From a virus (taxonomy: Duplodnaviria > Caudoviricetes): 52,286 nucleotides of DNA. Numbering within the stretch: position 1 is the first letter of the stretch; the number at the start of each line of letters is the position of its first letter. The translations under genes were made by a program, and so were the position numbers. Below the pieces are notes generated by a model, which was not told the DNA's origin, did no database searches, and saw nothing but the letters and a program-made list of their open reading frames with translations. The DNA is taken from positions 1 through 52,286 of the IMG/VR virus record IMGVR_UViG_3300030012_002942; one strand, 5' to 3'. This document shows positions 27,001-51,805 of this stretch, in pieces.

Positions 27001-27428
27001 GCAAAGAAAAGAACCTGCTGGAAAATATTGAGATGTATTCTCCCGAGGGCGATTTTTCGGAGGAGGAAAAGATTGAGCATTTTGCTTCACTCACGGGCAT
27101 CTTCCCCATCCACGAGATTATGCCACAGGAAATCCAAGACAACTTGATGACCCGTGGCTGTCCTCCTATCAGCGAGTACGACCCTGATCTACAACTGGTC
27201 TGGTTCATTCCGAGGGAAGTAAAAATAAAGAAGACCAAGAACGGCAAAGAGTACTGGATTATCCATACCACCGACAGCAACTCACATGACGCTCGCATCC
27301 GTTGTTGGGGGGTGAAAGAAAATGATAGAATTTCTCTTAACAAAGTGTACGTTGCTAACTTAGAATATAACGACAAGTGGGGATTCAGCACTCGCTCAAT
27401 TAAGAGAAGCTTTAGGAGGTTGACTTGA
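24018..27428 (+). CDS. dnaE: DNA polymerase III alpha subunit (family C)
   Basis: PHP motifs LHAHS..S..DG, ALTDHG, SDSHY. GRGSAAGS, PDIDYD, RHAGG, KFDLLGL, FQEQ, YGFN.SH, C-terminal OB fold. ATG 24018 after AGAAAGG. Confidence 0.96.
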   Translation: MSQRIESKIPFVGLHAHSGLSPFDGLGMPGEHMDFVYENGMNAHALTDHGHMNGLSFQIEHLKKMRADGKEFKAIYGCESYFIKSHRKWRQMYEEHKANQKRQKKEEYGMVVETEDRKLKRNPLNDRRHLVMLAQNQTGLNNLFQLVSDSYRPENFYRYPRMDFEMLDKYNEGLIISTACLSGPLFGDFWKHRNDGSDHVLSAMRNTIAQFKEIFGDRFYGEIQWNDIPEQHEGNNLIIQACMEMGVEVISTSDSHYPRPELWKDREMYKRIGWGGKAPYGDEDANKLPESVEEIGYELYPRNGDQMWEAYKKYSKRSKIEYEDHFVRDSIERTHHIAFDLIEDFIPDSEVRLPEFVVPEGKTAIQALTGDALKGLKNKGLTDSEYVDRLKYELNIIKERGFAQYFLTMKAISDKAQEQMLVGLGRGSAAGSLLAYVLDITQIDPIKYNLQFERFLTKGGAGYPDIDYDVEEPMLLKQQLADEWGQTTVVPISNFNTLQLRSLIKDIGKFYGVPFTEVNKVTSVMMNEATPLAKKARGQTAGVYTPTFDEVKEYSETLQDFFQKYPHIATHVDNLFGNMRSISRHAGGVLVAENLDRHMPLINSGGVIQTPWSEGQNVRHLEPLGFIKFDLLGLSTLRMISGAVRHILKRHHGIEDPTFAQVKEYYNKNLHPDVIDFDNQEVWREVFHKGKWAGIFQMTNGGAQNFCQQAQPESLLDFAAVTAIFRPGPLSAKAHNLYVANKNNPSQVHYEHPIIKEVLGDTYGLLVFQEQLAMLAHKLGDNLSLDEGNLLRKVLTKKGTGKDSVKTKLYNKFVKGCNSHGLSEEVAKNLWAKMEYFSGYGFNLSHAVSYGAVSFQCAWLSYYYPAEWMAAFLDKEPEDRKAQAINTAKSFGFDIVPPSINKSGRVWEISDDCKTLIQPLAGIKGLGDSAIDQIIDNRPFESIENFLFNENIVYSKLNKKALDVLVRSQSLTELMDDRFTGLRHFWSAIAVDRPRKEKNLLENIEMYSPEGDFSEEEKIEHFASLTGIFPIHEIMPQEIQDNLMTRGCPPISEYDPDLQLVWFIPREVKIKKTKNGKEYWIIHTTDSNSHDARIRCWGVKENDRISLNKVYVANLEYNDKWGFSTRSIKRSFRRLT

Positions 27429-27598
27429 CAGATCCTCTTCAACCTGGAGATAAAGTCAGGTGTCTTGTGTGGGAACTGCTTTCTTTGTGCGACAGAGAAG
27501 GTGTAATATTGGAAATAGATAAAGATGAGTGTCTGGTTCAGTTTGAAACAAAGACTTTCAAGATGAACCCTAAATTTTTAGCGCCTTTAGGAGAATAA
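27425..27598 (+). CDS. Small SH3/KOW-like protein (57 aa, not in ORF track)
   Basis: TTG after AGGAGG: MTDPLQPGDKVRCLVW...EGVILEIDKDECLVQF. Confidence 0.65.
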   Translation: MTDPLQPGDKVRCLVWELLSLCDREGVILEIDKDECLVQFETKTFKMNPKFLAPLGE

Positions 27599-27599
27599 A

Positions 27600-28175
27600 A
27601 TGGCTAATAATGTTTCGTTTAGAGTATCGTTTGAACAAATTAACAAAGAAGCAGCGGCAAAGCTTCAGGAGATGTACAAACGCTTCAGGACTGATGACTG
27701 CAACTTCAGTGATATGTATGTTGATGGCGAAGAGGGGTCTCCAACATACGAAGAGACTTGTACTCGTACTTGGAATACAGATAATATCGGCTCAAAGTGG
27801 TGTTATCTCGAAGAGTATGATGAGTATGGCTTTTTTGGCAAAAGTGCTTGGGCTGCACCTGAACAAGCACTTTATTGGCTTGCTGAACAACTAGGAGAAG
27901 TAGACCCAGAACTTCTAATGACTGCTTCCTACGAAGACGAGGGTCCAAACTTTGCTGGATGGATGGTGTTTGACGGCGTTGATATGTGGGATGAGGACTA
28001 CAAAGACGACGTCCAGCTTAGAAAGGTCATTGGCGAAATGAACCCTGATGTCAACGTTGAGGATGAGGATGAATACTATGAGGTTCTCTGGGACGGCGTG
28101 TATGAGTGGCAGAGTGACAACTTCAGCAGAGTAGAGAAAGAAATATTCAACTCAAGGGATTTTGAAATTGATTGA
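27600..28175 (+). CDS. Acidic hypothetical protein (DUF1281/YubB ferredoxin-like)
   Basis: WN.DNIGSKW...SAWAAP...YEDEG..FAG pattern. Confidence 0.6.
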   Translation: MANNVSFRVSFEQINKEAAAKLQEMYKRFRTDDCNFSDMYVDGEEGSPTYEETCTRTWNTDNIGSKWCYLEEYDEYGFFGKSAWAAPEQALYWLAEQLGEVDPELLMTASYEDEGPNFAGWMVFDGVDMWDEDYKDDVQLRKVIGEMNPDVNVEDEDEYYEVLWDGVYEWQSDNFSRVEKEIFNSRDFEID

Positions 28176-28737
28176 TGGAAAAGAAATAATAAAAGACGAA
28201 GAAAACTGTTACAACTGCGGTTGCAATCTAAAACCTATATGTCCAGATCATGAGGACGAAAAAGAAGAGAATAAAATGAGAGTAAGAGTACAAAAAGTTC
28301 ACACTAATGCTAAAATGCCTGCAAGGGCTCACAAGACTGATGCGGGGATGGACTTGTTTTTTTGTCCCGCACCTAAACCCGAACTTGATTCTCAGATCGA
28401 GACGGTACTTCCTTTTGGGTCATCAGTCATTCCAACTGGTCTAAAGATTGAGGTGCCCGAAGGTTACATGCTAGAGATTAAAAATAAGTCTGGTATCGCA
28501 TCAAAGCGTGGACTGATCGTGGGAGCCTGTGTTGTTGATCGAGGGTATACGGGCGAGATTTTTGTAAATCTTCATAATGTGACTCACCGTAACCAAACAC
28601 TTCACGAAGGCGATAAAATCGCTCAAGCTGTCTTTGTAAAAGTTGAGACTGACGTGCGATTGGTTGAAGCTGATCACATTTATGATGAGGATACCACCCG
28701 TGGTGACGGCGCTTTGGGATCAACAGGCGACCGATAG
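28162..28737 (+). CDS. dut: dUTPase (trimeric); core starts about 28276, possible Cys-rich N-terminal extension
   Basis: DAGMDL, IPTGL, KSGIA, VVDRGYTGEI, GDKIAQ, RGDGALGSTG. Confidence 0.95.
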   Translation: MKLIDGKEIIKDEENCYNCGCNLKPICPDHEDEKEENKMRVRVQKVHTNAKMPARAHKTDAGMDLFFCPAPKPELDSQIETVLPFGSSVIPTGLKIEVPEGYMLEIKNKSGIASKRGLIVGACVVDRGYTGEIFVNLHNVTHRNQTLHEGDKIAQAVFVKVETDVRLVEADHIYDEDTTRGDGALGSTGDR

Positions 28738-28750
28738 CCTAAGCTGAAAA

Positions 28751-28757
28751 CTACTTA
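28751..28757 (+). promoter_or_regulatory. Putative late-promoter motif CTACTTA
   Basis: AAAACTACTTA, intergenic. Confidence 0.5.
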
Positions 28758-28785
28758 CTCTTGGACTTTACCAAGGGAGCGTAGA

Positions 28786-30039
28786 ATGGCTAACGACACA
28801 TTCAGGCAAGTCCCCAGAACAGGGGTGGTATACGTTGTACAAGAGGCATCCAAACTAGGTTTTTACAGAGGTAATCCAGATTGGGTAAACTTTGGTCAAG
28901 GTCAACCACAAACTGATTTCATTGAAGGCGGCGTAGAGAGAATACACAACATTCCAGTAGTCGATGCTGACAACGAATACGCCCCTGTTTCGGGACTCCC
29001 TGAATTACGGGAAGCAATAGCAAATTATTATAATGAAACTTTCCGCAAGAACAAGAAATCAAAATATACAGCCAAAAACGTTTCTGTCGTATCAGGCGGT
29101 AGGCTCGCCTTAGCAAGACTGGCTGCTTCCTTGGGGAATATTAATCTTGGACACTTTGTTCCAGATTACACTGCCTACGAAGAACTGCTTTCTACATTTA
29201 ATCGCTTCAATCCCATTCCGATTCTGCTTGATCCTGAGAAGGGTTATGCTTTCACAACAGAGGACCTTAAAAGAGAGGTCCACGGACGAGGCTTGGGAGC
29301 CGTACTGGTTTCTAACCCTTGTAATCCCACTGGCAAAACTATTAAAGGCTCTGCCCTGCGTGATTGGGTGAAGATCGGTCGTGAGTTTGACTGCTACATG
29401 TTGATGGATGAGTTCTATAGCTCTTATGTTTATTCTGGGTTGCGTTTAGACGAGACACTCAGCGCCGCCAAATATGTTAAAGATGTGAACGAGGACCCAG
29501 TGGTCATCCTAGATGGTGCGACCAAAAACTGGCGTTATCCTGGCTGGCGTATTTCTTGGATCGTCGGACCCGAGCATGTCATTGAGAGCGTCACCAGTGC
29601 GGGCAGCTTTCTTGACGGCGGTGCTTGCCGTCCAGCCCAACGAGCCATCGTCCCATTGTTGGAGCCAGCCAAGATGAAGCAGGAGACTGCTGCCCTCAAA
29701 GCAAACTTCAGGGAAAAAAGAAGAATAATGTTAGACGGTCTACAGAAGATCGGCGTGACCTTTGAGCGTGAACCTGATGGAGCTTTCTATGCCTGGGGGA
29801 ATGTGTCAGCATTGCCAGAAGGAATCAATAACGGTATGAAGTTCTTCCGAGCCGCTCTCGAAGAGCAGGTCATTGTCGTTCCTGGTGAGTTCTTCGATGT
29901 GAATCCAGGCAAGCGTCGGGGCAAGTCATCTTCACGTTTTGACCAGCACCTGAGATTTTCTTATGGTCCCGATATTGAGATTATCAAAGAAGGAATAAAA
30001 AGGCTCCAAAAGGTAGCAAGCAATTGCACAAAGACTTGA
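28786..30039 (+). CDS. PLP-dependent aminotransferase class I/II
   Basis: GQGQP, Y....G..ELREAIA, SNPCNPTG, DEFY, TKNWRYPGWRI (PLP lysine), PDGAFY, LRFSY. Confidence 0.92.
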   Translation: MANDTFRQVPRTGVVYVVQEASKLGFYRGNPDWVNFGQGQPQTDFIEGGVERIHNIPVVDADNEYAPVSGLPELREAIANYYNETFRKNKKSKYTAKNVSVVSGGRLALARLAASLGNINLGHFVPDYTAYEELLSTFNRFNPIPILLDPEKGYAFTTEDLKREVHGRGLGAVLVSNPCNPTGKTIKGSALRDWVKIGREFDCYMLMDEFYSSYVYSGLRLDETLSAAKYVKDVNEDPVVILDGATKNWRYPGWRISWIVGPEHVIESVTSAGSFLDGGACRPAQRAIVPLLEPAKMKQETAALKANFREKRRIMLDGLQKIGVTFEREPDGAFYAWGNVSALPEGINNGMKFFRAALEEQVIVVPGEFFDVNPGKRRGKSSSRFDQHLRFSYGPDIEIIKEGIKRLQKVASNCTKT

Positions 30040-30080
30040 CATACTGTTCGCCTGTGGTAATATATTAATGTAAGGAGAGT
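30036..30080 (+). promoter_or_regulatory. Strong early sigma70 promoter plus RBS cassette
   Basis: TTGACA-16-TAATAT with extended TG, then TAATGTAAGGAGAG. Repeated at 32183 and 49404. Confidence 0.8.
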
Positions 30081-30311
30081 ATGATGCAAGTCGGTAAAAA
30101 AGTAAGACTCACAGGGATTACCCAGCACGGTAAAAACCGTGTTCGGGAACAGGGCGACACTTGGGAAGTTATTCGGATGAACCCCACGGTAGCTTTTAAG
30201 ACAAAAGCCCCTGGTCCATTTATGTTATTGCAGGCTACTCAGTCTATCAACATGCGCTGGGTTTCCACTATCAACGATGATAACTTTTCAGTAGAGGTCA
30301 TTGATGAGTAG
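30081..30311 (+). CDS. Small SH3/KOW-like protein
   Basis: MQVGKKVRL...VEVIDE. Confidence 0.7.
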   Translation: MMQVGKKVRLTGITQHGKNRVREQGDTWEVIRMNPTVAFKTKAPGPFMLLQATQSINMRWVSTINDDNFSVEVIDE

Positions 30312-30531
30312 AAAAGTTAGCCCTTGGCGACACAACCTTCAGGTTGGTGACTTGGTAAGTATGAAGTCTGGTCACATGGCTATTATTATGAAAGTTAGCG
30401 GTTACAGTACTCAAGCTTGGGACACTGAGCCGCTACCACCACCTCGTGTCAAGATTTTTTACTGTGATGACTCTAGCACAGGGTCTTGTAGTTCTTGGCG
30501 GGTAGACAGGGTATTGAATGCAAATCGGTGA
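30301..30531 (+). CDS. Small SH3/KOW-like protein
   Basis: LQVGDLVSM..G..AII.KV. Confidence 0.7.
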   Translation: MMSRKVSPWRHNLQVGDLVSMKSGHMAIIMKVSGYSTQAWDTEPLPPPRVKIFYCDDSSTGSCSSWRVDRVLNANR

Positions 30532-30724
30532 TCTAGTAAGAATCTCAGACTGGGATCCTAAACTCCACAAAGGTTGGAACCCAGTGGGACTTGTTATGTC
30601 CCTTCCAGAAGTAAAGAATCACGGCACAACTTGTGTCCTTGTTGACTGGCTTGAATCGCCGGATACTGAATATTATTCCGTTCATCATTTAGAAGTTATA
30701 TCAAAGGTTAGCAGAGGAGAATAG
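30518..30724 (+). CDS. Small SH3/KOW-like protein
   Basis: MQIGDLVRI...VGLV...VLVDW...LEVIS. Confidence 0.75.
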   Translation: MQIGDLVRISDWDPKLHKGWNPVGLVMSLPEVKNHGTTCVLVDWLESPDTEYYSVHHLEVISKVSRGE

Positions 30725-30725
30725 A

Positions 30726-31244
30726 ATGGCTGGAGGAATTCAACCTGGAACCACGGCATGGGATAGTCAGTCACTAAAGCACGACAAGGTTGTCCGCTTA
30801 GCTTCAAAGGAAGCAGAGAAAATTCTTCAAGAAAGGTACCCTGGGATCGCACGCCACAATAAGGTAGACAAAGATTCATTGCCAACTGGCTTTGGTGCTT
30901 GTTCTCCCGATGGTGGTGTCTGGTATTATCAAGATAAGCTAATCGCTGCATTTGAAGCCAAAAAGCAGGGACCTCGTGGAAATGCGATTGAGCGTTGGTA
31001 TAAGAACTATTTCTTGATTAAGGAAATCAATGATCGCTGCCCGCTAGTGACTTATGCTATTGGCGAGGGTGTCCGCTACGGCAACCCGATTCACGTCATA
31101 CTGCATGCAGCACACAGAGGACAATATAATACTTTCCGCTCAGACGGTCCATCTTGCTTTCTTGATGAAGAGGGCTTTACATTTGAAGAGATTAGAGATA
31201 ATATTGTTGAGTTCATTGAAGGCGAGATAAAACAATATGACTAA
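30726..31244 (+). CDS. EcoRI-family type II restriction endonuclease-like protein
   Basis: PDGG...EAKKQG...GNAIER..KN matches the EcoRI catalytic PD..EAK and recognition GNAIER motifs. Confidence 0.8.
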   Translation: MAGGIQPGTTAWDSQSLKHDKVVRLASKEAEKILQERYPGIARHNKVDKDSLPTGFGACSPDGGVWYYQDKLIAAFEAKKQGPRGNAIERWYKNYFLIKEINDRCPLVTYAIGEGVRYGNPIHVILHAAHRGQYNTFRSDGPSCFLDEEGFTFEEIRDNIVEFIEGEIKQYD

Positions 31245-32163
31245 ACCTCTTTATATGTGGGCTGGCGGTAAGACCCGTATGCTGAAGAAGTATGCTGACT
31301 TGCTTGAGGGCGTATCCTTCGATCGATATGTTGAGCCTTTCTTTGGCGGTGGTGCAATGTTTATCTGGGCGTACCAGCAGAATCCTGATGCTGAGTTTAT
31401 TATTAATGATATCAACTCTGGGATTATGAACATTTACACTGCTATTAAAGATGACTGTGATAACTTCACCAAAGTTATGGATATTCTATCAAAAGAGTAT
31501 TTATCACTCCCTAAGGGTGAGACTGACAAGTCATTTGAAAATGAGCACGAAAAGAATTGGGATAAGTTGTATCGCCTCCGCCCGTGCCGCCGATACTTCT
31601 ATTTCAATCTTCGGCAGAAGCATGCCTACGAATATCAGGACTGGGGCGCAACGAAAGAGGCTGCTGTTTTATATTTCTTGATGAAAACAGGCTTTAATGG
31701 CTTGTGGCAAGAAAACAAAAATACCAACGGTCGCTTTGGTACTCCTGCTGGCTTACTGAATCAAAAAGATAAAGTCTATGATAAAGAAGTCGTTGAGTGG
31801 TGGCACACCGCCTTACAGAAGTGTACAATCCTCAGTGACGACTTCGAAGCAACAAAAGAATATATTAACTCTGATACTTTCCTCTTTATGGATCCTCCTT
31901 ATCGAGACAGTTTCACTCAGTACGAGACTGACTTCAATGACGACGAACAGAAACGTGTAATCAGTTTGTTGAAGGTTTGCCAGGGTCACGGTGGAACAGG
32001 GTGGCTCTCAAACAGAGATGCTGGCGACGGCTTTTTCGAAGAGAACGCATCAGAGTTTGCAATGCATAAGTTCCCTGTGACTTATACCGCAGGAAGAAGA
32101 AAGAAAGTCGATGATGGCTTTGAGGCTAAAAAAGCCACCGAAATTCTTTTGGTAACAAAATAA
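31237..32163 (+). CDS. dam: Dam/D12-family N6-adenine DNA methyltransferase
   Basis: WAGGK, YVEPFFGGGA, INDIN, FNG....N..G.F..P, DPPY, LSN, terminal E.L. Confidence 0.9.
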   Translation: MTKPLYMWAGGKTRMLKKYADLLEGVSFDRYVEPFFGGGAMFIWAYQQNPDAEFIINDINSGIMNIYTAIKDDCDNFTKVMDILSKEYLSLPKGETDKSFENEHEKNWDKLYRLRPCRRYFYFNLRQKHAYEYQDWGATKEAAVLYFLMKTGFNGLWQENKNTNGRFGTPAGLLNQKDKVYDKEVVEWWHTALQKCTILSDDFEATKEYINSDTFLFMDPPYRDSFTQYETDFNDDEQKRVISLLKVCQGHGGTGWLSNRDAGDGFFEENASEFAMHKFPVTYTAGRRKKVDDGFEAKKATEILLVTK

Positions 32164-32182
32164 AATATATTTCCCAAAAAGC

Positions 32183-32230
32183 TTGACCTGTGCTCTCCTC
32201 ATGGTAATATACTAATGTAAGGAGAGAGTG
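32183..32230 (+). promoter_or_regulatory. Strong early sigma70 promoter plus RBS cassette
   Basis: TTGACC-16-TAATAT with extended TG, then TAATGTAAGGAGAG. Confidence 0.8.
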
Positions 32231-32386
32231 ATGTCAGTTCAAGATCATATTGAAAATATTCTCAACGCCCAGGGCAAGATTGCCATTGACTTTTGGAGTG
32301 CTGCTATCTGCGAGCACCCTCAAGATGCTAAAGCCATCTTGGATGTTGTTGGTGATCACCTTGTAGAAAACTCTAACTGGTTATAG
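32231..32386 (+). CDS. Small hypothetical protein (51 aa, not in ORF track)
   Basis: ATG after AAGGAGAG: MSVQDHIENILNAQGKIAIDFWSAAICEHP... Confidence 0.7.
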   Translation: MSVQDHIENILNAQGKIAIDFWSAAICEHPQDAKAILDVVGDHLVENSNWL

Positions 32387-32392: not shown

Positions 32393-32653
32393 GTGATGCT
32401 ATACGGCAAAGAACTTCTCAAGTCAATCCAGAAACGGAGCCGCATCCAGCCCGGTATGTTAGTCAACTGCCGTTGGAGCACGGACACCGCTGAGTTTACT
32501 AAGAAGCTCGCTTTGGTGGTTGAGGTATCTCCAGGCTGTAAGTTTGATCGGGATTACGAAGGGGCAGAGGAGCATCTCTTCTATCGGTGCCAGCGCTTTG
32601 ATGGTGCGCCAGACTTCGTAGACTATGCCTGCAATATGGAGATTGTATCGTGA
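32393..32653 (+). CDS. Small SH3/KOW-like protein
   Basis: IQPGMLVNC...LALVVEV...MEIVS. RBS GGAGAGAGTGATG is identical to that of 32231. Confidence 0.7.
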   Translation: MMLYGKELLKSIQKRSRIQPGMLVNCRWSTDTAEFTKKLALVVEVSPGCKFDRDYEGAEEHLFYRCQRFDGAPDFVDYACNMEIVS

Positions 32654-32832
32654 AGCCAATAAATAGATTTAGTATCGGTGCCCTAGTCAATGTTGATAAG
32701 CATTACAACAAAACTTTGGGTATGATTGTTCGCCAAAGCCGTGGGTACAACTGGATTGTCAAGCGTATGAACGACGGTCAAAATGTTCTAGCCCACGAAG
32801 ATAATATGGAGGTGGTCAGTGAAGCCAGGTGA
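32650..32832 (+). CDS. Small SH3/KOW-like protein
   Basis: FSIGALVNV...LGMIV...MEVVSEAR. Confidence 0.7.
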   Translation: MKPINRFSIGALVNVDKHYNKTLGMIVRQSRGYNWIVKRMNDGQNVLAHEDNMEVVSEAR

Positions 32833-32983
32833 TTTGGTTCGGCACCGAGGGAACAAAAAAGTATATCTTGTACTTAAAGCCCGTGAGGTCAAAGGCGAGG
32901 TTGTCTACGTTCACTTAGAGGGTATGCCCCCAAACCGAGCCGTCTATCTACAATCTCTGGAGATGTTGAATGAAGCCAGGTGA
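32819..32983 (+). CDS. Small SH3/KOW-like protein (54 aa, not in ORF track)
   Basis: GTG after GGAGGT: MKPGDLVRHRGNKKVYLVL...LEMLNEAR. Confidence 0.75.
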   Translation: MKPGDLVRHRGNKKVYLVLKAREVKGEVVYVHLEGMPPNRAVYLQSLEMLNEAR

Positions 32984-32993
32984 TTTAGTTCGG
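32820..32993 (+). repeat. 23-bp near-perfect direct repeat at two successive gene junctions
   Basis: TGAAGCCAGGTGATTT(G/A)GTTCGG at 32820 and 32971. Confidence 0.85.
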
Positions 32994-33167
32994 ATTAAAA
33001 AGTCAGCCATCACCGCTTGGTCTACATTGTGGTTTGTTGATCTTGCTGAAAACAAGTCACCGCTCCTTGTGATGGAACTCGTTAATAGACGCCATTGGAA
33101 AGTAATGAAGCCCGATGGAAATACTTTTTTTGTTGAAGAAGAAAACCTAACGAAGAGGATGTGGTAA
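32970..33167 (+). CDS. Small SH3/KOW-like protein
   Basis: MKPGDLVRI...LLV.E....WKV...G....V.E..L. Confidence 0.75.
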   Translation: MKPGDLVRIKKSAITAWSTLWFVDLAENKSPLLVMELVNRRHWKVMKPDGNTFFVEEENLTKRMW

Positions 33168-33406
33168 TGGAACGAGAAACTTACAACTCACGGCTCAGGT
33201 CAAACCCTGAAGATATTCCTGCCGGCAGCTTGCTGCGGATCAAGAAGCATTGTCGTAAGAATAATATCGTTAAACAAAATGGTGAGCTTGCTATACTGGT
33301 AGAACGTCCGCACGGAACATATATTTCACACGATGTTTTATTCCCCTCGGGTCGCAGAACTATTTTTATACCGATGAACTGGGAGGTAGTTAGTTATGCA
33401 CGATAG
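33161..33406 (+). CDS. Small SH3/KOW-like protein
   Basis: IPAGSLLRI...GELAILVE...WEVVSYAR. Confidence 0.65.
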   Translation: MVMERETYNSRLRSNPEDIPAGSLLRIKKHCRKNNIVKQNGELAILVERPHGTYISHDVLFPSGRRTIFIPMNWEVVSYAR

Positions 33407-33653
33407 GATGTGGAAAGTCCAGCAGCCTGGGACTCTCTTACGAGGGCGTAGTAGTCATCAATATGGCAGGCTGGCTTTGGTCCTTGATAAGGCTTACGAT
33501 GGACCCACGCCAAGCAATGGGTATCCTCCCCGTCGGTATGTAAAAATGCAATGGGTAGCAACTGGCGAGCGGTTTGAAGAAATGTTAGTAAATGCTCATA
33601 ATTGTTTTGACATTGTGAGTTCTCATGATACACTGGGACCGGAGGAGAACTGA
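33396..33653 (+). CDS. Small SH3/KOW-like protein
   Basis: QPGTLLRG...GRLALVL...VKMQW...FDIVS. Confidence 0.65.
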   Translation: MHDRMWKVQQPGTLLRGRSSHQYGRLALVLDKAYDGPTPSNGYPPRRYVKMQWVATGERFEEMLVNAHNCFDIVSSHDTLGPEEN

Positions 33654-33853
33654 TGGCTATTACACCTAAGTTCAAGCCAGGTCAACTGGTCAAGTATAAT
33701 CACACTTCCAATCCACTTGTTGGTTTGGTCAAGGCTACACGTCGTGCCCGCCGCCACGGCGACCCTGTGATCGTACTTGTCCAGTGGTGCAATGACCGGA
33801 ACACAGAAGAATATATATATCAAAAAGATTTGAAACTAGTGGAGGACGTATGA
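33653..33853 (+). CDS. Small SH3/KOW-like protein
   Basis: FKPGQLVKY...VGLV...VLVQW...E.I...DLKLV. Confidence 0.75.
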   Translation: MAITPKFKPGQLVKYNHTSNPLVGLVKATRRARRHGDPVIVLVQWCNDRNTEEYIYQKDLKLVEDV

Positions 33854-34365
33854 ATATTTTTGCTATTGAAGGTGACTTAGAGACAGGTCAAATCGACTGG
33901 GAGAAGTCAGCACATTCTCAAGACAATCTACGAGTTGTCAAGATGATTTTAGAGTCTTGTCAGATTTTATCTACAGTACTCAATGAGCAGGGGATGAAAG
34001 CACCGTATCGGTCATTCAATCCAAAGCACCCATCGTGCTTGTGGGCTGCCGAATCATCCAGCAACTTTGTTAATCTTGCTATACATTGCCAAGCAATGAT
34101 CGATGAGTATGAGCATCGGTTCAACAAGACACACAAGTGCCTGGCAGTTCTTCAGACTCTTATAGAAATGTTTGACCCTGATTTATTTCCTCAGCAGGAA
34201 TGTACTCCTCTACGCCTGGCTATGCCAGAAGAATTCAAATCAGACAATCCTGTACTATCATACAGAAAGTTCTACGCTTCGAAGCCAAGGCTGCGATATC
34301 CCAAGGACAAGATTCCAGATTGGGTTATGAAATATCGAGAGCAAGAGCCGATTGAAATCTGCTAG
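33850..34365 (+). CDS. Pyrimidine-dimer DNA glycosylase (DenV)-related protein
   Basis: MNIF...VVKMILES.Q.L...HP...W...EY..RF.K.H...AMP...YR.FY. Confidence 0.7.
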   Translation: MNIFAIEGDLETGQIDWEKSAHSQDNLRVVKMILESCQILSTVLNEQGMKAPYRSFNPKHPSCLWAAESSSNFVNLAIHCQAMIDEYEHRFNKTHKCLAVLQTLIEMFDPDLFPQQECTPLRLAMPEEFKSDNPVLSYRKFYASKPRLRYPKDKIPDWVMKYREQEPIEIC

Positions 34366-34443: not shown

Positions 34444-36264
34444 ATGTTTTCTAAGCAATCCTACAGAAGTTTTATCATATGGTTTTTAGTCTTTGCAGCC
34501 GTTGCTTCTCTGTATGGAACCGCCGGAATATCTCAGCAAACTCTTCCAACAAACCTGTCTTATAGTAAAGCTTTAGAGATTGTTGGTGATGCGGAAGAAA
34601 GTAGAAAAGTAATAAAGATAACCATCCAGCAGGATAGCTGGTTGATAGATATCGACGGAAAGAAATATAAAACAGTAGGACCCTTATCAGAGGAAACTCT
34701 CAATAGCCTATCTAAAAACAAAAATATTGAACTCTCGTTCAAAGGAGCTAAGGCTCCATCAATATGGGCAACTATATTAATATCCTGGGTGCCTACACTA
34801 CTAATCATTTTTGTGCTTTATTATTTTATATCAAAAGCACTGAAGAATGTCCCCAGTGGTGGCAGCCGAATGGATAAGTTTTCAAACTCTAAAGCAAGAG
34901 TCATTTTACCATCTGATGACGGTGTCAACTTTGATGACGTTGCTGGGTGCGATGAGGCAAAGTCAGAACTCGAAGAGTTAGTTGAGTTCCTTCGCAAGCC
35001 ACAAAAGTTCACACGCTTAGGTGGCAAGTTACCGAAGGGGGTTCTGCTTTATGGTCCTCCTGGGACTGGTAAGACCCTTTTAGCCAAAGCCGTTGCTAAT
35101 GAAGCACAAGTGCCCTTCTTAGTGTCTTCTGGTTCTGAATTTGTTGAGATGTTCGTCGGCGTCGGCGCATCAAGAGTCCGAGACCTTTTTGATCAGGCTT
35201 ATAGCTTGGCTCCCTGTATTGTTTTTATTGATGAGCTAGATGCCATCGGTAAAACTAGAGGAGGCAAGGGATCAACAGGAAACGACGAAAGAGAGCAGAC
35301 CCTAAACCAGATACTTGTAGAGATGGATGGATTTGATGATAACTCTGGCATCATTGTTTTGGCTGCTACTAATAGAATAGAGATCCTAGACAAAGCTCTA
35401 ACAAGACCAGGGCGATTTGATAGAAAGGTCGCCGTACCACTACCAGATGCTAATGGAAGAAAAGAAATATTAAAGATTCACTTTGCAAACTCACCTGTTT
35501 CCGAGGATGTAGATCTGGAAGTTTTATCAGCAACGACATCAGGTCTTTCAGGTGCTGACTTGGCTAACTTAATAAACGAAGCGTGCATACTTGCAGCAAT
35601 GGAAGATTCAAAGCTTGTCACTAATCAGCATATCGAACTTGCAAAAGATAAGATTCTTATGGGCAAACCTAGAAAGTCTATGAAGCTAACAGAATCCTCA
35701 CGCCGAGCCACTGCTATTCACGAGGCTGGTCATGCAATTCTGGCATACTACCTAGATGAAGCTGATCCACTTCATAAGGTTACAATTATCCCTCACGGAA
35801 GGGCTTTGGGTGTAACTATTCAGATGCCAGAGGAAGATCGACTTTCGTGGAGCAAAAAAGAAAACATAGCAAGAATAAAGGTATTGCTAGGTGGCTTCAT
35901 TGCCGAAAGAATGTTCTATGGAGATGACGGCACAACCACAGGTGTATCTAATGACTTGTTAAGGGCCAAGCAGATAGCAGAGACAATGGTCAAGGACTAC
36001 GGAATGGGTGCAGTCGGACCAGTTTATTTTGGAAACTCTTCAGGCTATGGCAACCGAGGTGCTGATACCTCTGATCTTGCCAAAGAGGAGTTTGATGATG
36101 CTGTCAAAGAAATAATGGAAGAAGCTCTTCATTCTGCGGAAAAGCTGCTGGAAGATAAACGTGAACATATTGCCGTATTGACTGAGGCTCTAATGGAGAA
36201 AGATACAGTTATGGCTTCAGAGTTAGAAGGTCTGTTTTCTATTATTGATATTTATTTGGACTAA
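34444..36264 (+). CDS. ftsH: ATP-dependent zinc metalloprotease FtsH
   Basis: Two N-terminal TM segments, [20 protein letters not shown]...LD.AL.RPGRFDR, HEAGH. Confidence 0.97.
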
Positions 36265-38043: not shown

Positions 38044-38631
38044 ATGAAGAAAGAGAATAATAGCCTCATTAATGAAAATGTTGTTCGCCGCTGGGGCAAG
38101 CTAGCCAACATGGCTAAGTTGACCGAAAACTATCTTGATTCTACTGTTGAAGAAGCAGCACACGAAGAAGAAGAGATGGAAGTCGAAATGCCTGAAGCTG
38201 CTGCCGAAATGGACGCTGAAATGGACGCTGAAATGGCAGACGACGCTGAGGAAATGGAAATGGACGCCGAAATGGATATGGGCGAAGAACCATCTCTAGA
38301 CCTTGATGAAGAAGAAATCGAGCAAGTAGCTCAAATGTTCTTCGACACCTTGGCAAAGGCTACTGGCAAAGAGATCGATACCGAAATCACTTCTGATGAA
38401 GAAGAGATGGCTATGGACGACGAACCAGCTATGGACGACGAGCCAGCTATGGAAGATGAGCCAGCTATGTACGATGATCCCGCCATGTACGACGACAAGC
38501 CAGCTAATCGTGAAGACGAAGAGACGGTCGCTGAAGATGCTGAGGTTGAATTGGACGTTGTAGACGACGAATCTCTCACCGAGGCTGTTTTGGCTCGTGT
38601 CATCGAAAGACTACTAAAGACCGATAAGTAA
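38044..38631 (+). CDS. Highly acidic low-complexity protein, probable internal head/scaffold protein
   Basis: LINE..VRRW.KLA leader, Glu/Asp/Met-rich body, C-terminal LTEAVLARVIERL. Confidence 0.7.
   Translation: MKKENNSLINENVVRRWGKLANMAKLTENYLDSTVEEAAHEEEEMEVEMPEAAAEMDAEMDAEMADDAEEMEMDAEMDMGEEPSLDLDEEEIEQVAQMFFDTLAKATGKEIDTEITSDEEEMAMDDEPAMDDEPAMEDEPAMYDDPAMYDDKPANREDEETVAEDAEVELDVVDDESLTEAVLARVIERLLKTDK
38410..38499 (+). repeat. Five degenerate 18-bp tandem repeats (AMDDEP)
   Basis: GCTATGGACGACGAACCA and variants x5. A 12-bp GAAATGGACGCT repeat is at 38206-38229. Confidence 0.9.
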
Positions 38632-45169: not shown

Positions 45170-46090
45170 GTGAGAGCCGACCCTTTTGAGAGATTTAAAG
45201 ATCTAAAAGATAATCACTGCTGGCAGTATGAAGTAAGGTTACGGAACACTGAAGCAGACCTAGAGGAACTAGGGAAGTCGGCGTCTTGGGCAGAAAAGCT
45301 CAGGACTGCCGACTTTTACTTTTCCTATGTGGACAAGACGAACAAGGAAGAGTGCACCGAGATCAAGGCTTTTATCGAGCGTCATGAGTTTCTTGGCATT
45401 CTTCCTAACCGTCCAACTCACAGGTTCACAGCCCGGCTCAAGGATACAAACACTTTGGCAGGTGTCATCGTGATGGCAACTCCTAATGCTTTTAGTCACT
45501 TGTTGGGCAAAGAAAATAAAAACATCATAAAGCTAGTATCAAGAGGAGCTTCAATTAGTTGGGCTCCAAAGAACCTAGGGTCTTGGCTGTTGTCACGAGC
45601 CTGCAAGTGGATGGTTCAGAACACAGAGTTCAGAGCCTTTGAGGCATACAGTGATCCACTAGCTAAAGAGCTAGGAACAATCTATCAAGCGTTGAACTGG
45701 AACTACCTAGGACAAACATCAGGAACTGCGAAAGTATACAGAGATCCAAACGCCCTTGAAAAGGGTTGGTTCAGCGACCGAGAGTTTCGCAAGAAATCAA
45801 AGTATCGACGCTATGCTGAAGCAGTGGGCATATCTTATGAGGAATGGAAAAAATACTTAGGTAAGTACACTCCTAAATGGGATGAAATGCCTTCTGGTCT
45901 AAAGGATAAGATCAAAGAACAAGAGCGTCTTTTCCGAGACAGTTGCGACTGCCGAGTGGTACCAGCAAAACACAAGTACTGCTACATTTTGGGCAGATCA
46001 AAAAAAGAAACTAAACACTTGAGAAATTTGTTTGTACAATGTAATCCTAAACGGGCAAACCTCCCGTATCCAAAAGAAAGAGGGGAATAG
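45170..46090 (+). CDS. Mom-like (GNAT-fold) DNA adenine-modification protein
   Basis: FI..H..LG, L.GVI....P, SR......PKN..SW.LS, AYSDP...E.GTIYQA.NW.YLG, terminal K.KY.Y.L...PYPK. Confidence 0.75.
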   Translation: MRADPFERFKDLKDNHCWQYEVRLRNTEADLEELGKSASWAEKLRTADFYFSYVDKTNKEECTEIKAFIERHEFLGILPNRPTHRFTARLKDTNTLAGVIVMATPNAFSHLLGKENKNIIKLVSRGASISWAPKNLGSWLLSRACKWMVQNTEFRAFEAYSDPLAKELGTIYQALNWNYLGQTSGTAKVYRDPNALEKGWFSDREFRKKSKYRRYAEAVGISYEEWKKYLGKYTPKWDEMPSGLKDKIKEQERLFRDSCDCRVVPAKHKYCYILGRSKKETKHLRNLFVQCNPKRANLPYPKERGE

Positions 46091-47686
<1,596 letters not shown>

Positions 47687-47758: not shown

Positions 47759-47772
47759 ATGGAGGTTGCCCC

Positions 47773-48368: not shown

Positions 48369-48369
48369 A

Positions 48370-48729: not shown

Positions 48730-48734
48730 GTAGA

Positions 48735-48741: not shown

Positions 48742-48746
48742 TAGTT

Positions 48747-49367
48747 ATGGATAATAAACTAATCTTTGAGAACTGGCGCACCTTTATAATAAATGAGAGC
48801 CTGCCGCCACCCCCTGGGACTGAAAACATCGAGACAATCGGTGAGCTTGTAGAATACTTTAAGAACGCAGAGCCATCTGTTCTGAAGAAGATGTTCGCTA
48901 AGTACGGGAAGGCGGGTGCAAAAATCCTTGGAACTGCTGGTGCCGCTTTGGCAACCACGGGTTTCGGCGCAGGTGCCGGAGCCGCTGCTGGCGTCGCTGC
49001 TGTTGCTGGTGGCGCTTTAGCCCAAAAACTAGTTGAAGACATCCTGACTGCCGGCGCTTTGATGTTTGCCAATGTGGAAGATGGAACGTACCAAGAGGGT
49101 TCTGCAATTAGTTTTTTTGACTTAGACGACAAGGTACAAGCTTTCTTGAGAGATACAGAACATGGTGTCAAGGATGCGGTGAAGGGCAAAATATCAAGAA
49201 TGGAAAAAGAGGCTATAGATAAAATGATATTACACGTCAGAAAAAAAGCCAAAGAATTTTCACCAGATACAAAATTACAAGACGCTCTTGGAACCACAGC
49301 CCAGGAAATCATGGATAAACAGTTCAGAGATGAGAATGATATCAGGATTCAAACTGGCGGACGCTGA
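48747..49367 (+). CDS. Glycine-zipper protein with (L/I)xE leader, probable internal virion protein
   Basis: MDNKLIFENWRTFIINE leader, hydrophobic GTAGAALATTGFGAGAGAAAGVAAVAGGAL. Confidence 0.7.
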   Translation: MDNKLIFENWRTFIINESLPPPPGTENIETIGELVEYFKNAEPSVLKKMFAKYGKAGAKILGTAGAALATTGFGAGAGAAAGVAAVAGGALAQKLVEDILTAGALMFANVEDGTYQEGSAISFFDLDDKVQAFLRDTEHGVKDAVKGKISRMEKEAIDKMILHVRKKAKEFSPDTKLQDALGTTAQEIMDKQFRDENDIRIQTGGR

Positions 49368-49403
49368 CCTGCGTAAAATAAATAAAACTTAAATAAATAA
49401 AAC

Positions 49404-49452
49404 TTGACACCCACTCGTTACATGATACTATAATAATGTAGGGAGAAGAGAT
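49404..49452 (+). promoter_or_regulatory. Strong early sigma70 promoter plus RBS cassette
   Basis: A-rich UP element, TTGACA-16-TACTAT with extended TG, then TAATGTAGGGAGA. Confidence 0.8.
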
Positions 49453-50088
49453 ATGGGTTATTGGCATCAAATGTATCCTCGTCCAAAGCGCTCTGAGCGA
49501 GTAGAAGTTCCTAACGGCGAAGCTCGTTTCGAGTCGCTGATGGCTAAGAAGTTATCAGAACGTGATCGTAAGTTTGCTGAGTCTCTTAAGAAGCAGTTTG
49601 AGGACGGCGGCGAACTGTCTGTCAAGCAGATTGAGTGTATTGATAAGATGGAGCAACGCTACTCCCCCGAGGCACAACTCAAGCGGGAGCGCTGGGCTCA
49701 GTCCTACAAGAAAGAGCACCGCCCCACGGCTTTGATCTGTGCGAACTACTACGCTACAACCACATATTTCCGTGATCTATCTCTTAAGATTGCTACGGAC
49801 GAGGACTTCGTTCCCACTCAAAAGCAGTTCAACGCTCTTACAAAAAACAAGTATGCCCTAAAGGCTATCAAGGCTGCGACTGAGCCGCCTGCTTTTCCAG
49901 TAGGCTCTCTTTGCAAAGTGCGAGCTAACTTCAACTTGGTCAATGATCGCAAGCTTCATGACCAAGTGGGCTTAGTGGTGGCTAACCACGCCAAAGGGCT
50001 CTACGCTTCCTCAACCATTCTTGTAAATGGCGAGCAAGTCAAGCTTCAAGACCGCTGCTTGAAAGCTGCGGCAAAGAAAAAGAAATAA
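49453..50088 (+). CDS. Early hypothetical protein with C-terminal SH3/KOW-like domain
   Basis: F.ESL..QF.....LS.KQ helical region, then FPVGSLCKVR...GLVV. Confidence 0.75.
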   Translation: MGYWHQMYPRPKRSERVEVPNGEARFESLMAKKLSERDRKFAESLKKQFEDGGELSVKQIECIDKMEQRYSPEAQLKRERWAQSYKKEHRPTALICANYYATTTYFRDLSLKIATDEDFVPTQKQFNALTKNKYALKAIKAATEPPAFPVGSLCKVRANFNLVNDRKLHDQVGLVVANHAKGLYASSTILVNGEQVKLQDRCLKAAAKKKK

Positions 50089-50090
50089 CT

Positions 50091-50118
50091 TAAACAACAA
50101 ATAACAATAGGGTATAAT
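50091..50118 (+). promoter_or_regulatory. Putative sigma70-type promoter (TAAACA-16-TATAAT)
   Basis: Perfect -10 followed by AAAGGAGG RBS. Confidence 0.5.
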
Positions 50119-50139
50119 CCTAGAAAGGAGGGTTCGTAT

Positions 50140-50562
50140 ATGCGAGCAACAATTAGTTTTGATGTTGATATGGAACAAGTAGAAGGTACTATGGCAGTGG
50201 TAGCATGCTCGGAAGAGCACAATCTGCGTGCTGCTGCTGATATTTTGTCCAACTATACTGTCTTAGATGGTAGCTTACTAAGTGCTCTTACTGAAGTGCT
50301 ACGCTTGTTGGAAATGTCTGCTGAACAGCTTAGGCAGTACAAGAGTATGGTTGTAAACTTTGAGAAGGCTAGACTAGAACACTCAAATCCTGCACCACCA
50401 CAGGTTGATCAAGAAGCAAGAGGTCCAGAGCCTAGTGCCGTAAATAGCTTTGCGGATGTGCGAAGAGTTATGGAAGATATGGAAGGTTTTGACAGCTTCT
50501 TGTCACAGCTACCAACTGAGGATAGTGTTGATCTAGAAGTAGAAGAAGATGAAGAATCCTAA
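50140..50562 (+). CDS. Hypothetical protein
   Basis: AAGGAGG RBS, 140 aa. Confidence 0.75.
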   Translation: MRATISFDVDMEQVEGTMAVVACSEEHNLRAAADILSNYTVLDGSLLSALTEVLRLLEMSAEQLRQYKSMVVNFEKARLEHSNPAPPQVDQEARGPEPSAVNSFADVRRVMEDMEGFDSFLSQLPTEDSVDLEVEEDEES

Positions 50563-50770
50563 AAAGGGTGATTTAGTATATCTGCCCTCAGATATTACAC
50601 TGATTGATGACTTCACCGTCAAAAGGTGGGTCAAGCTTGAGGAGCCAACTTTGGCAGTAATGATAGAGCCTCAGGTAAACAAGGAAGACATCTACCACAG
50701 GGTCCATGTTCTAGGATCTGACTGGTATGTAAGGACAATAGATACAATGGAGGTAATGTCCCGTGCTTAA
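50549..50770 (+). CDS. Small SH3/KOW-like protein
   Basis: PKKGDLVYLP...W.V...MEVMS. Confidence 0.7.
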   Translation: MKNPKKGDLVYLPSDITLIDDFTVKRWVKLEEPTLAVMIEPQVNKEDIYHRVHVLGSDWYVRTIDTMEVMSRA

Positions 50771-51074
50771 AATAGCAGAAGTCTACGAAAAACAGATTAG
50801 AGAATCAAAAGAAAATACCGACGGATCAGTTTACACTGACTTCCATAAGGTTTTTGATACTCGTGATTGTCTATTGAACATTGATTATATTGTCAGTGTC
50901 CTGCCATACGAGTTCGAGGCATCGATAGACAAGGAGAGAATTGAAAATAGTTTCCCTGTTAGCACAAAGTTTTGTAAGATAGTTGTAGATGGCAACTCAT
51001 TTAGGAAGTCAGAACTTATTGTTGTTGGTTCTTTTGAGAAGTTCTGTCGTGTTCTAAAGGGTAATCAAACGTGA
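50763..51074 (+). CDS. Hypothetical protein
   Basis: GTG after GGAGGT. LLN.DYIVSV...IVVGS. Confidence 0.7.
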   Translation: MLKIAEVYEKQIRESKENTDGSVYTDFHKVFDTRDCLLNIDYIVSVLPYEFEASIDKERIENSFPVSTKFCKIVVDGNSFRKSELIVVGSFEKFCRVLKGNQT

Positions 51075-51805
51075 ATCTAGCAACCTGGGAAGAACTAATA
51101 GACTTTCATTGCCATCGGACACACGTCAGGGTTGACGGCGTTCTCCGCTGGAATAAAAAGTATGAACCCTTCTCGACAAGAAGGTACAATTTCTCGAATC
51201 GAAGAGATGGTAAGGTATGTCGTTTGGTCTTCCTAAATCCTGTACTAAAGGATAGCAACAACAAGACACTGATCCGAGACGGTCGGTTCATCTGGTGTAA
51301 AGATTTAGAGTACTGCGGTCTCAGTGAAAACGGGCTCCGTCAAATTTCTTTCTCTGTGGACAGGGGTAGAAAACGTTTCACGATAGAAGAAAATAATATG
51401 CTATGTGTTCCATCTAAAAGTTTTGTTAATAATAACAAATACTTTAGAAGCAAAGAGAAAGTTTTCAAGGGGTTCTCCTCAGTGCTAAACTATGATAATA
51501 CTATTGGTATGATGGCAAAGTGGGCGAAAGTTTCACAGCAAGACATCCGAGACCAGATTGATAAGGACAACCCTTTCAAACCTGGGACTCTGGTCGCCCC
51601 AAGGCTAGGGTACTTTTACCCGCAGCCCGCTCAACCACACCTTGAGCACCCACCGCTTAGTGAAACCCATCCTTATGGTATAATTTTAGGCAAATCCTTT
51701 ACAAATAACAATGAAATTGGCAGAGAATTTTATAGAGTACGCTTCGGTGATGTAACCTATGAAGGCGTCCACCCTGTCCAAATGGAGATAATAAATGAAG
51801 TTTAG
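51071..51805 (+). CDS. Hypothetical protein with C-terminal SH3/KOW-like domain
   Basis: C-terminal FKPGTLV...YGIIL...YRVRF...VHPVQMEII. Confidence 0.7.
   Translation: MNLATWEELIDFHCHRTHVRVDGVLRWNKKYEPFSTRRYNFSNRRDGKVCRLVFLNPVLKDSNNKTLIRDGRFIWCKDLEYCGLSENGLRQISFSVDRGRKRFTIEENNMLCVPSKSFVNNNKYFRSKEKVFKGFSSVLNYDNTIGMMAKWAKVSQQDIRDQIDKDNPFKPGTLVAPRLGYFYPQPAQPHLEHPPLSETHPYGIILGKSFTNNNEIGREFYRVRFGDVTYEGVHPVQMEIINEV

Follow-up and report, generated by a model that had tools for sequence, protein, structure and literature searches.

The window analysed here, a stretch of 52,286 bp from an uncultured marine myovirus (IMG/VR record IMGVR_UViG_3300030012_002942), contains an array of very small genes between positions 30081 and 33853. 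Most of these genes are proposed to encode paralogous, stand-alone SH3-like (KOW-like) proteins of 50-90 amino acids (aa), arranged in coupled head-to-tail cassettes and serving as small binding modules, a combined statement to which we give a probability of about 0.6. Each open reading frame (ORF) is designated below by its first position. Profile comparisons support eight ORFs of the array (30301, 30518, 32393, 32650, 32819, 32970, 33161 and 33653) as members of one family, and likewise the C-terminal domains of two larger proteins, 49453 and 51071. The family is common in large viral contigs and is so far unnamed; it is now defined by its sequence, its fold and its gene architecture. Host-takeover and anti-defence factors come chiefly from the small early proteins of phages, a group that is still mostly unclassified.

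Delimitation of the family

A sequence-only reading of the window had grouped 15 ORFs into one expansion on the basis of a common motif. All 15 are present, on the + strand. This motif is not statistically demonstrable on the window sequences alone because all pairs but one are at noise level: 30518 and 33653 recognise each other inside the window (phmmer E ~6e-4), while all other pairs gave E > 0.1. The resemblance reaches significance once orthologues from 14 related viral contigs are added; 15 loci were fetched via gene 33850, which is conserved (83-88% identity in 14 loci). The arrays of these relatives contain orthologues of the window ORFs at 34-93% identity, together with many small ORFs without a counterpart in the window.

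The pool used for clustering comprised 190 distinct small ORFs, with reversed copies as decoys. BLAST single linkage at E<=1e-3, which recruited 0 decoys, forms one cluster of 44 that contains 30301, 30518, 32819 and 33653 and another of 18 that contains 32393 and 33396. An iterative hidden Markov model (HMM) started from 17 of the pooled ORFs and expanded to 49, recruiting no decoy, whether reversed or shuffled. Iterative searches seeded with the 33161 or 32650 groups also reach the core with 0 decoys; those seeded with the 33396, 32393 or 30081 groups do not converge on it. An enriched profile was then built from 48 members and 74 database representatives (122 sequences), for which the first decoy in the pooled set appears at E 0.039. 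Seven array ORFs score better than this decoy, from 33653 down to 32393, whereas 50549, 33396, 33161 and 21934 score worse (Table 1); two orthologues of 33396 match the profile at 5e-4 and 7e-4. Alignment of the orthologue groups to the enriched profile with hhalign gives the probabilities listed in Table 1, to be compared with 0.1-6.4% for five other families of small ORFs used as controls.

Ten of the 15 proposed members are therefore retained. Three others are probable or tentative (33396, 50549 and 27425), and two, 30081 and 21934, find no support. For 30081, the iterative HMM remains at 5 sequences, the ratio of nonsynonymous to synonymous substitution rates (dN/dS) is 0.10, and the neighbours found in the ESM Atlas are viral hypothetical clusters only.

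Public profile collections do not recognise these proteins. The 15 window ORFs have no significant match in Pfam or PHROGs, and family members (48-52 tested with Pfam, PHROGs and NCBIfam) have none in Pfam or NCBIfam; PHROGs returned weak matches of unknown function for 3 of 52 representatives. None of the 48 core members and none of 18 window proteins reaches the cut-off of any KOW model of Pfam (best values: KOWx_SPT5 E 0.077, and KOW E 0.27 for 27425). Among the 48 members, no nucleic-acid-binding Pfam model reaches its cut-off and no PetP, NdhS or PsaE family appears at E<=1. When profiles were compared with the sequences of the PDB, one alignment had no match and the other none below E 0.058; the weak matches of the latter to uL24 and uS17 lie at E 0.06-0.09, with uL24 at 0.09.

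Predicted fold and variable loops

Two of the 15 proteins were modelled, 30518 and 49453, and the models point to one fold for the members that are linked by sequence. The AlphaFold model of 30518, obtained from a 48-sequence alignment, has a mean predicted local distance difference test score (pLDDT) of 90.7 and is a small barrel with five main strands; DSSP places strands at residues 6-9, 23-26, 37-44, 50-54 and 58-62, plus a short one at 31-33. The model of 49453 (16 homologues, pLDDT 86.6) shows helices from residue 22 to 143 followed by a five-stranded domain at 153-205. Both models have the features of the SH3-like small beta-barrel class, that is, five strongly bent antiparallel strands within ~60 residues. 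The sequence-only reading had postulated a single small beta-barrel scaffold with variable loops, and the two predicted folds indeed agree with each other rather than being heterogeneous, with conserved columns on strands and variable ones on three loops.

The Foldseek list obtained with 30518 contains SH3-like barrels only, at E 0.02-0.25 and a template modelling (TM) score of ~0.6: PetP in the first row, the KOW domain of Kin17, Ssl0352/NdhS in the fourth row, Tudor, Spt5 KOW and R67 dihydrofolate reductase (DHFR). In a scan of 48,161 chains, the best match of 30518 is the Spt5 KOW domain of M. jannaschii (4zn3_A; Z 8.1, root mean square deviation (rmsd) 1.8 over 55 residues), and further matches include PsaE (Z 6.9), R67 DHFR (Z 6.6, rmsd 2.3 over 54 residues, 22% identity) and YorP (5.4). 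The domain of 49453 superposes on KOW6 of DSIF (5ohq_A) with Z 9.2 and an rmsd of 1.3 over 54 residues; it also matches Mind bomb repeats, NdhS, YorP (Z 8.1), PetP, the KOW domain of T. maritima NusG (Z 8.0) and R67 DHFR (Z 7.2). Among predicted viral structures, many unnamed mini-proteins are found among the best matches (best E 6.8e-4, TM 0.78/0.83), and runs of adjacent accessions in these matches suggest that several copies are present per genome.

G4, L6 and V7 do not vary across the 122 aligned sequences, and entropy is low at positions 24-26 (GLV), 40/42/44 (VxVxW) and 58-61 (LEVI). Positions 9-22, 28-39 and 48-57, which correspond to three loops, are gap-rich or of high entropy. The lengths of family members lie between 53 and 97 aa (5th-95th percentile), and their isoelectric points (pI) are also widely spread: among 420 family ORFs, 40% lie below 6 and 36% above 8, and 7 of the 10 array ORFs of the window lie at 9.4-9.9.

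Orthologues of 51071 are present in 5/5 related records. Three of the six orthologues (L019, L020 and L021) carry ~50-65 extra residues in the first loop of the C-terminal barrel, an insertion which demonstrates that this loop accepts large additions. With all six orthologues, the hhalign value of this domain is 52.5% over 12 columns.

Dual-coded junctions between successive genes

Throughout the database, representatives start with M-K-(P/V)-G-D-L-V at residue 1 and end with L-E-V-I-(N/S)-E-(S/A)-R. The two ends are encoded by the same DNA: with the frame set one base earlier, the beginning of the next gene (ATG AAR NNN GGT GAY) encodes x-E-(S/A)-R-stop, and in this canonical form the two genes overlap by 14 nucleotides (nt). 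Furthermore, the L-E-V codons spell TGGAGGT, a Shine-Dalgarno sequence located 8-9 nt ahead of the next start, and GGAGGT-type sites lie 5-9 nt ahead of starts across the array. Three overlaps of 14 nt occur in the window, at 30518, 32819 and 32970; inside the two sub-arrays the overlaps measure 14, 14, 14, 11, 7, 4, 4 and 1 nt.

This arrangement extends beyond the window. Without any selection by the pattern, 32/46 family ORFs of the lineage set have the TGA of the upstream ORF inside their own GGTGA. Among the representatives of at most 100 aa (n=84 of 88), 56 start with M-[KQNRE]-x-GDLV at residue 1 and 32 end with E-[SAGTN]-[RGW]. Codon usage is biased accordingly, the glutamate of the terminal [LM]E[VI] being GAG in 24/30 cases in the lineage versus 95/234 elsewhere in the same ORFs (Fisher p 5.6e-5), and in 185/205 cases in other loci versus 575/1323 elsewhere in the same ORFs (Fisher p 1.2e-39).

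The terminal motif (L/M/W)-E-(V/I)-(V/I)-(S/N), initially read as a protein signature, thus has a double nature. It does correspond to the last strand of the barrel (residues 58-62), but it is also partly the ribosome-binding site and overlapping start of the next gene and hence not purely a protein motif; the tail that follows the last strand, N-E-(S/A)-R in the terminal LEVINE(S/A)R, is a passenger of the next gene's start. The overlaps and the internal Shine-Dalgarno sequences are those of a translationally coupled operon, which is the architecture predicted here. The junction is a clear example of a "protein motif" that is partly a translation signal, and it provides a simple DNA signature for locating such arrays in viromes.

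Array content in related viruses

The content of the array is not invariant among relatives: close relatives differ by cassettes that were gained, lost, duplicated or replaced. Its 3' part keeps a conserved order: a 32393-type gene, a K14- or K19-group gene, 32970-type, K07-group, 33161-type, 33396-type and 33653-type genes, and finally 33850 (K groups denote subfamilies found in the relatives and lacking a window copy). The 5' part is variable and includes duplications, e.g., of the 32819-type gene (two or three copies) or of the 33653-type gene (two copies). Relatives in which the whole array is covered have 16-18 small ORFs, versus 11 in the window, which has in addition a gene for a 172-aa protein and a Dam methylase. 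The paralogues are old and divergent, often sharing ~25% identity. Pairwise dN/dS lies at 0.10-0.39 in the subfamilies of the array, compared with 0.05-0.14 in the genes that flank it; the array ORFs are real genes, under purifying but weaker constraint.

The two-gene methylase module (30726-32163) is missing from the arrays of four relatives (L003, L009, L012 and L015), and a contig from a marine metagenome joins 30660 to 32176, skipping it. Part of the module (~8% of a 4-kb query) shares ~72% DNA identity with Synechococcus phage S-BM1 and a shorter part 69% with S-RIM2. The module looks like a mobile insertion and is possibly a restriction-modification-like pair. Metagenome contigs also skip or replace the interior of single cassettes, e.g., from 32838 to 32958, 32997 to 33150, 33174 to 33402 and 33622 to 33841.

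Promoter-leader cassettes and feature map

A cassette of 43 nt (TTGAC, 17 nt, TANTAT, ANTAATGTARGGAGA) is present in exactly three copies in the window (0 expected from shuffles), and exact or near copies are located at the starts of arrays or within arrays in three relatives (L003, L004 and L015). The cassettes at 30036 and 32183 are good matches to the sigma-70 consensus with a TG extension. The sequence-only reading had placed the strongest sigma-70 promoters of the window ahead of the main array; the matches are there, but they are not uniquely the strongest. Since the third copy precedes 49453, the genes 49453, 50549 and 51071 can be placed in the same putative regulon as the array.

Table 1. 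Features of the array, its promoter-leader cassettes and the outlying genes. HMM E-values and hhalign probabilities refer to the enriched 122-sequence profile; hhalign was run on orthologue groups.
Positions	Strand	Feature	HMM E	hhalign	Remarks
21934..22233	+	99-aa ORF; membership unsupported	3.8	0.5%	
27425..27598	+	57-aa ORF, tentative KOW/SH3-like; family membership not established		32.5%	
30036..30078	+	Cassette copy 1			Directly ahead of 30081: TTGACA, 16-nt spacer with TG extension, TAATAT, TAATGTAAGGAGA leader with Shine-Dalgarno
30081..30311	+	76-aa ORF; membership unsupported		0.9%	First after cassette 1; kept in relatives
30301..30531	+	Supported member, 76 aa	5.6e-4	98.3% (group with 32819)	12-residue N-terminal extension ahead of xGDLV strand; BLAST cluster with 32819
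30518..30724	+	Supported member, 68 aa	5e-18	99.4%	AlphaFold-modelled; start overlaps end of 30301 by 14 nt
30726..32163	+	Two-gene insert splitting the array, non-family			172-aa unknown and D12-class adenine methylase (Pfam MethyltransfD12 E 2.8e-32)
32183..32225	+	Cassette copy 2			Directly ahead of 32228
32228..32386	+	52-aa ORF, non-family		0.1%	First after cassette 2; orthologues in L003, L012
32393..32653	+	Supported member, 86 aa	0.016	90.5% (56 columns)	N-terminal extension; first decoy at E 0.039
32650..32832	+	Supported member, 60 aa	1.1e-5	78.8%	Also iterative search
32819..32983	+	Supported member, 54 aa	3e-18	98.3% (group with 30301)	Minimal form; 14-nt overlap at each end; junction DNA GTGAAGCCAGGTGA
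32970..33167	+	Supported member, 65 aa	5.6e-12	97.6%	Long first loop
33161..33406	+	Supported member, 81 aa	2.7	93.6% (63 columns)	N-terminal extension; iterative search
33396..33653	+	Probable member, 85 aa	0.59	44.7%	BLAST link to 32393 group (E<=1e-3); orthologue HMM matches
33653..33853	+	Supported member, 66 aa	4e-24	99.6%	Last array gene; position kept in all relatives covering it
49404..49446	+	Cassette copy 3			Directly ahead of 49453
49453..50088	+	211-aa protein, net charge +15; C-terminus supported		C-terminus 84.9% (57 columns)	Helical N-terminal part, KOW/SH3-like C-terminal domain, lysine tail
50549..50770	+	73-aa ORF, tentative member	0.12	68.9% (14 columns only)	Common element: N-terminal KGDLV strand alone
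51569..51802	+	C-terminal domain (residues ~167-244) of the 244-aa protein 51071-51805; supported		C-terminus 89.2% (56 columns, three short-insert orthologues)	Family-like barrel, first loop with variable insertion

Besides the array, the C-terminal domain of 49453 covers residues ~146-207 (nt ~49888-50073). Its N-terminal helical part has no fold match, the lists of matches being filled by the C-terminal barrel. Homologues of 49453 (23-36% identity) adjoin arrays in 12/80 junction loci. The Pfam matches of 27425 are all SH3-like and none is above cut-off: MSSS SH3 (E 0.0021), SPT5 KOW7 (0.04), ProQ_C (0.053) and KOW (0.27). Next to 21934, the 133-aa ORF 22175-22576 matches phrog_7499, of unknown function, at E 8e-12; this is the sole clear PHROG match among the small proteins tested. 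In one database representative of 126 aa (P0056), two family barrels are naturally fused in a single polypeptide, the second having the usual tail. This fusion looks like the loss of a stop codon at a junction.

Proposed role and alternative explanations

For the binding modules proposed here, protein targets, as in host takeover or counter-defence, are favoured because the loops vary, the charge runs from acidic to basic and the content turns over between close relatives; we put this choice of target at a little under even odds, within the overall probability given above. The array genes would be transcribed early by the host RNA polymerase and, through coupling, the mini-proteins would be made in roughly equal amounts. 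As a small module, each barrel would bind its own macromolecule of the host (or phage), and the barrels together would form a turnover-prone repertoire for host takeover or counter-defence. The conserved junctions would permit in-register recombination of cassettes. Should the members turn out to be specific binders, they would amount to a naturally occurring library of minimal barrels directed at bacterial targets.

A more ambitious version, which we advance tentatively and with more doubt than belief, is that the arrays are a virus-side, self-renewing KOW-like repertoire. The junction, with its ribosome-binding site, start and stop in ~25 nt, would keep the register while unequal or inter-phage recombination adds, drops or swaps whole barrels without breaking translation; for large marine phages, the products would be fast-evolving effectors of host takeover or counter-defence present in 30 or more copies per genome, and the 49453-type protein, which has the same promoter cassette and adjoins arrays in other lineages, would be part of the system.

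Several observations weigh against these proposals. The binder role is drawn from analogy with other small barrels, the fold from two modelled members, and the membership of 33161 and 33396 from the profiles of their orthologues, their own HMM E-values being 2.7 and 0.59. The array is mixed, as the first genes after two of the promoter cassettes, 30081 and 32228, are not family members. The word "early" reflects matches to consensus promoters, and other sites of the window score equally; a search for RNA runs containing the stretch gave none. Values of dN/dS below 1 give no direct sign of diversifying selection. The metagenome joints come from contigs matched at 80% likeness, many of them short-sided and possibly belonging to other organisms, and are suggestive only. 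Finally, away from overlaps, the glycine of xGDLV is encoded by GGT in just 9/14 and 66/126 ORFs (52-64%), i.e., the junction shows no conservation beyond dual coding. This weakens the idea of a recombination site, and a junction acting as a recombination signal with extra nucleotide conservation is thus unsupported.

Alternatively, the mini-proteins could be nucleic-acid binders in the style of KOW, Tudor or Sso7d proteins, coating or chaperoning phage or host RNA or DNA. Their nearest solved folds, the KOW domains of Spt5, NusG and ribosomal KOW proteins, along with the weak uL24 and uS17 matches, go in this direction, as do the lysine tail and net charge of 49453 and the basic pI of most array ORFs of the window. 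However, the 40% of the 420 members with a pI below 6 are ill-suited to uniform nucleic-acid binding, the 48 members reach the cut-off of no KOW or other nucleic-acid-binding Pfam model, and the variability sits in the loops, as expected for differing targets. We regard this explanation as unlikely.

The barrels could also be adaptors or regulators of the phage's proteostasis machines (FtsH 34444, ClpP-like 52065, GroES/GroEL), directing selected host proteins towards degradation or folding. Small barrels such as SspB and HspQ serve as protease adaptors, and HspQ is a specificity factor of Lon. HspQ is found among the structural matches (Z 5.5 and 7.4), FtsH is encoded ~600 nt downstream of the array and directly after it in two relatives (L002 and L004), and ClpP, DnaJ or HSP20 each adjoin an array in one other locus. 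Nevertheless, such structural matches are generic for the fold, no FtsH gene lies beside the array in L003, L009, L012 and L015, and chaperones or proteases account for 3/98 of the flanking ORFs scanned, which leaves this role with a small share of the probability.

The resemblance between the ORFs could be mostly an artefact of tight gene packing, with shared ribosome-binding sites and overlapping starts, and not a result of common descent. The C-terminal tail and part of LEV are demonstrably shaped by the downstream Shine-Dalgarno sequence and start, and the likeness of 50549 to the core is limited to the 14 N-terminal columns. For the core, this explanation is largely refuted: profile matches span 50-67 columns and take in both internal strands, GLV and VxVxW; no reversed or shuffled decoy was recruited; the alignment gives a confident barrel; equally packed controls (the 32228, 36321 and 37636 groups) score 0.1%; and 30518 retains LEVIS though the next start is five codons further on. 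For the family as a whole, we judge it very improbable.

In the same low range, and slightly below, stands the possibility that the barrels mimic the SH3-like subunits of cyanobacterial electron transport (PetP, NdhS, PsaE) and rewire host photosynthesis. The positions of PetP and Ssl0352/NdhS at rows 1 and 4 of the Foldseek list, the PsaE match (Z 6.9), the Microcystis host of the closest cultured phage by tail sheath, and the ~72% identity of part of the methylase module to Synechococcus phages would fit. The E-values of 0.02-0.25 are nevertheless level with those of many other small barrels and Pfam gives no match to the three families; no psbA-type gene was found in 3 related records (2 at least 95% complete), and a search of the Microcystis phage gave no match to the family at E<=1.

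The least probable explanation is that some members are R67/DfrB-type DHFRs, tetramers with a catalytic pore, acting in phage nucleotide metabolism. R67 is among the best structural matches (Z 6.6 and 7.2), and a language-model search with 33653 leads to a 127-member viral PF06442 cluster (score 0.90, 150 shared features); PMC9835603 reports DfrB homologues near DNA methyltransferase genes in a Pseudomonas phage and a Vibrio phage, and a VQIY motif on the fourth strand of DfrB. The explanation is rejected here, as PF06442 has a match at E<=1 in 0/10 records (the window, four relatives and five array-rich contigs) and is absent from the weak Pfam hits of the 48 members, and VQIY occurs in 1/420 family ORFs, where by our reading it falls on the third-strand segment, and in 0/15 window ORFs. 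Ten or more paralogues per genome would not be expected of one enzyme either. A complex prediction with four copies of 30518 scored 0.00 against a mark of 0.42, which counts neither for nor against binding.

Occurrence in other viral contigs

Searched with the 48-member profile, a set of 1.84 billion proteins yields 88 representatives (E<=1e-3). A 30-letter junction pattern (~41 bits by our own estimate) is found in at least 178 viral stretches, where spacings of 150-200 nt are common. In 80 junction loci that were fetched, 622 profile hits correspond after removal of overlaps to 432 distinct family ORFs, window and relatives included, with as many as 30 on one contig. The genes flanking these arrays encode a mixture of auxiliary proteins: HSP20, GNAT, DnaJ, ClpP, dUTPase, thymidine kinase, cytidylyltransferase, methylases, AAA_5 and VWA-like proteins. 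GenBank phages gave no match at E<=0.01 for the single representative queried (P0036, tblastn), and Microcystis phage Mel-JY01 gave no family match at E<=1. In the portions of the literature accessible to full-text searches, no description of the family was found.

Genome context and other genes of the window

The window is a fragment, estimated as 29% complete, of a genome of ~175-190 kb, and all its genes lie on the + strand. Related contigs measure 174,625 bp (rated 95% complete) and 190,528 bp (rated 100% complete), and marine metagenomes contain DNA near-identical to the window. The closest cultured phage by its tail sheath is Mel-JY01, yet the identity is 39.6%. Structural genes of the window encode the tail sheath, a T4-type baseplate protein and a collagen-repeat fibre. 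Replication and nucleotide metabolism are represented by a DnaE-type polymerase III alpha subunit, RecA, a DnaB-like helicase, a class II ribonucleotide reductase, a dCMP deaminase and a dUTPase. Further genes encode GroES/GroEL, FtsH, an IMPDH/GMP-reductase-like enzyme, a Dam-type methylase and a Mom-like protein.

Some of these genes deserve a few words. The conserved gene directly after the array (33850-34365) matches Pyr_excise (E 7.8e-5, 23.4 bits for a cut-off of 23), and its product is probably a repair enzyme like T4 endonuclease V, of the pyrimidine-dimer DNA glycosylase family. Proteostasis genes comprise GroES (20307-20558), FtsH (34444-36264), GroEL (46091-47686) and a ClpP-like ORF at the end of the window (52065-52286; weak match, E 0.027), which as predicted would be an unusually full set for one phage. 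The 109-aa protein encoded by 37636-37965 matches region 4 of sigma-70 alone (E 1.7e-7) and may be a sigma-like or anti-sigma-like transcription factor of the phage. The Mom-family protein encoded by 45170-46090 (E 2.4e-12) suggests DNA base modification.

The match of the 415-aa ORF 10761-12008 to family A DNA polymerase is confined to the C-terminal end of the latter, and the ORF overlaps, at its 5' end, the 506-aa ORF before it; the region 9320-12008 may thus be a split or frameshifted polymerase gene, beside the DnaE-type polymerase at 24012. Finally, 38044-38631 encodes a highly acidic protein of 195 aa with low-complexity repeated (E/D)-(E/P)-(A)-M-(D/E) units, which is conserved but fast-changing (33-45% identity in relatives).

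Comparison with known systems

The closest solved structures are the KOW domains of NusG, Spt5 and ribosomal uL24 (PF00467), which share with the phage proteins a five-stranded barrel of equal size and a Gly-Asp-x-Val first strand. The phage members differ from them by falling below every KOW cut-off, by standing alone without an NGN or other partner domain and by occurring as many tandem paralogues. PetP, NdhS and PsaE of cyanobacteria and plastids are also single-domain proteins (55-80 aa) of the same fold, which dock onto large complexes, but no sequence-level relation to them was found with Pfam and they are single-copy host genes. In the same way, R67/DfrB (PF06442) has an SH3-like protomer of similar length and no HMM match in the 10 records. 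YorP, from the SP-beta prophage of Bacillus subtilis (2heq), is another phage-borne stand-alone SH3-like protein, and the title of its PDB entry names no function; no sequence relation to the family was detected and, to our knowledge, YorP does not form arrays.

As to gene organization, the host-takeover module of SPO1 and the early hyperplastic regions of T4 are, in large virulent phages, clusters of packed small genes behind sigma-70-type promoters; their content varies between relatives and their products are mostly unrelated. The present arrays differ from these early clusters in that most of their genes are paralogues sharing a single fold and linked through a constant overlapping junction, and in that they reach ~30 copies on a contig. 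Tandem changes in copy number also serve adaptation in the "gene accordions" of poxviruses and in the repeat families of giant viruses. Unlike these expansions, which are recent identical copies, the phage paralogues are old, divergent, overlapping and, as predicted, translationally coupled.

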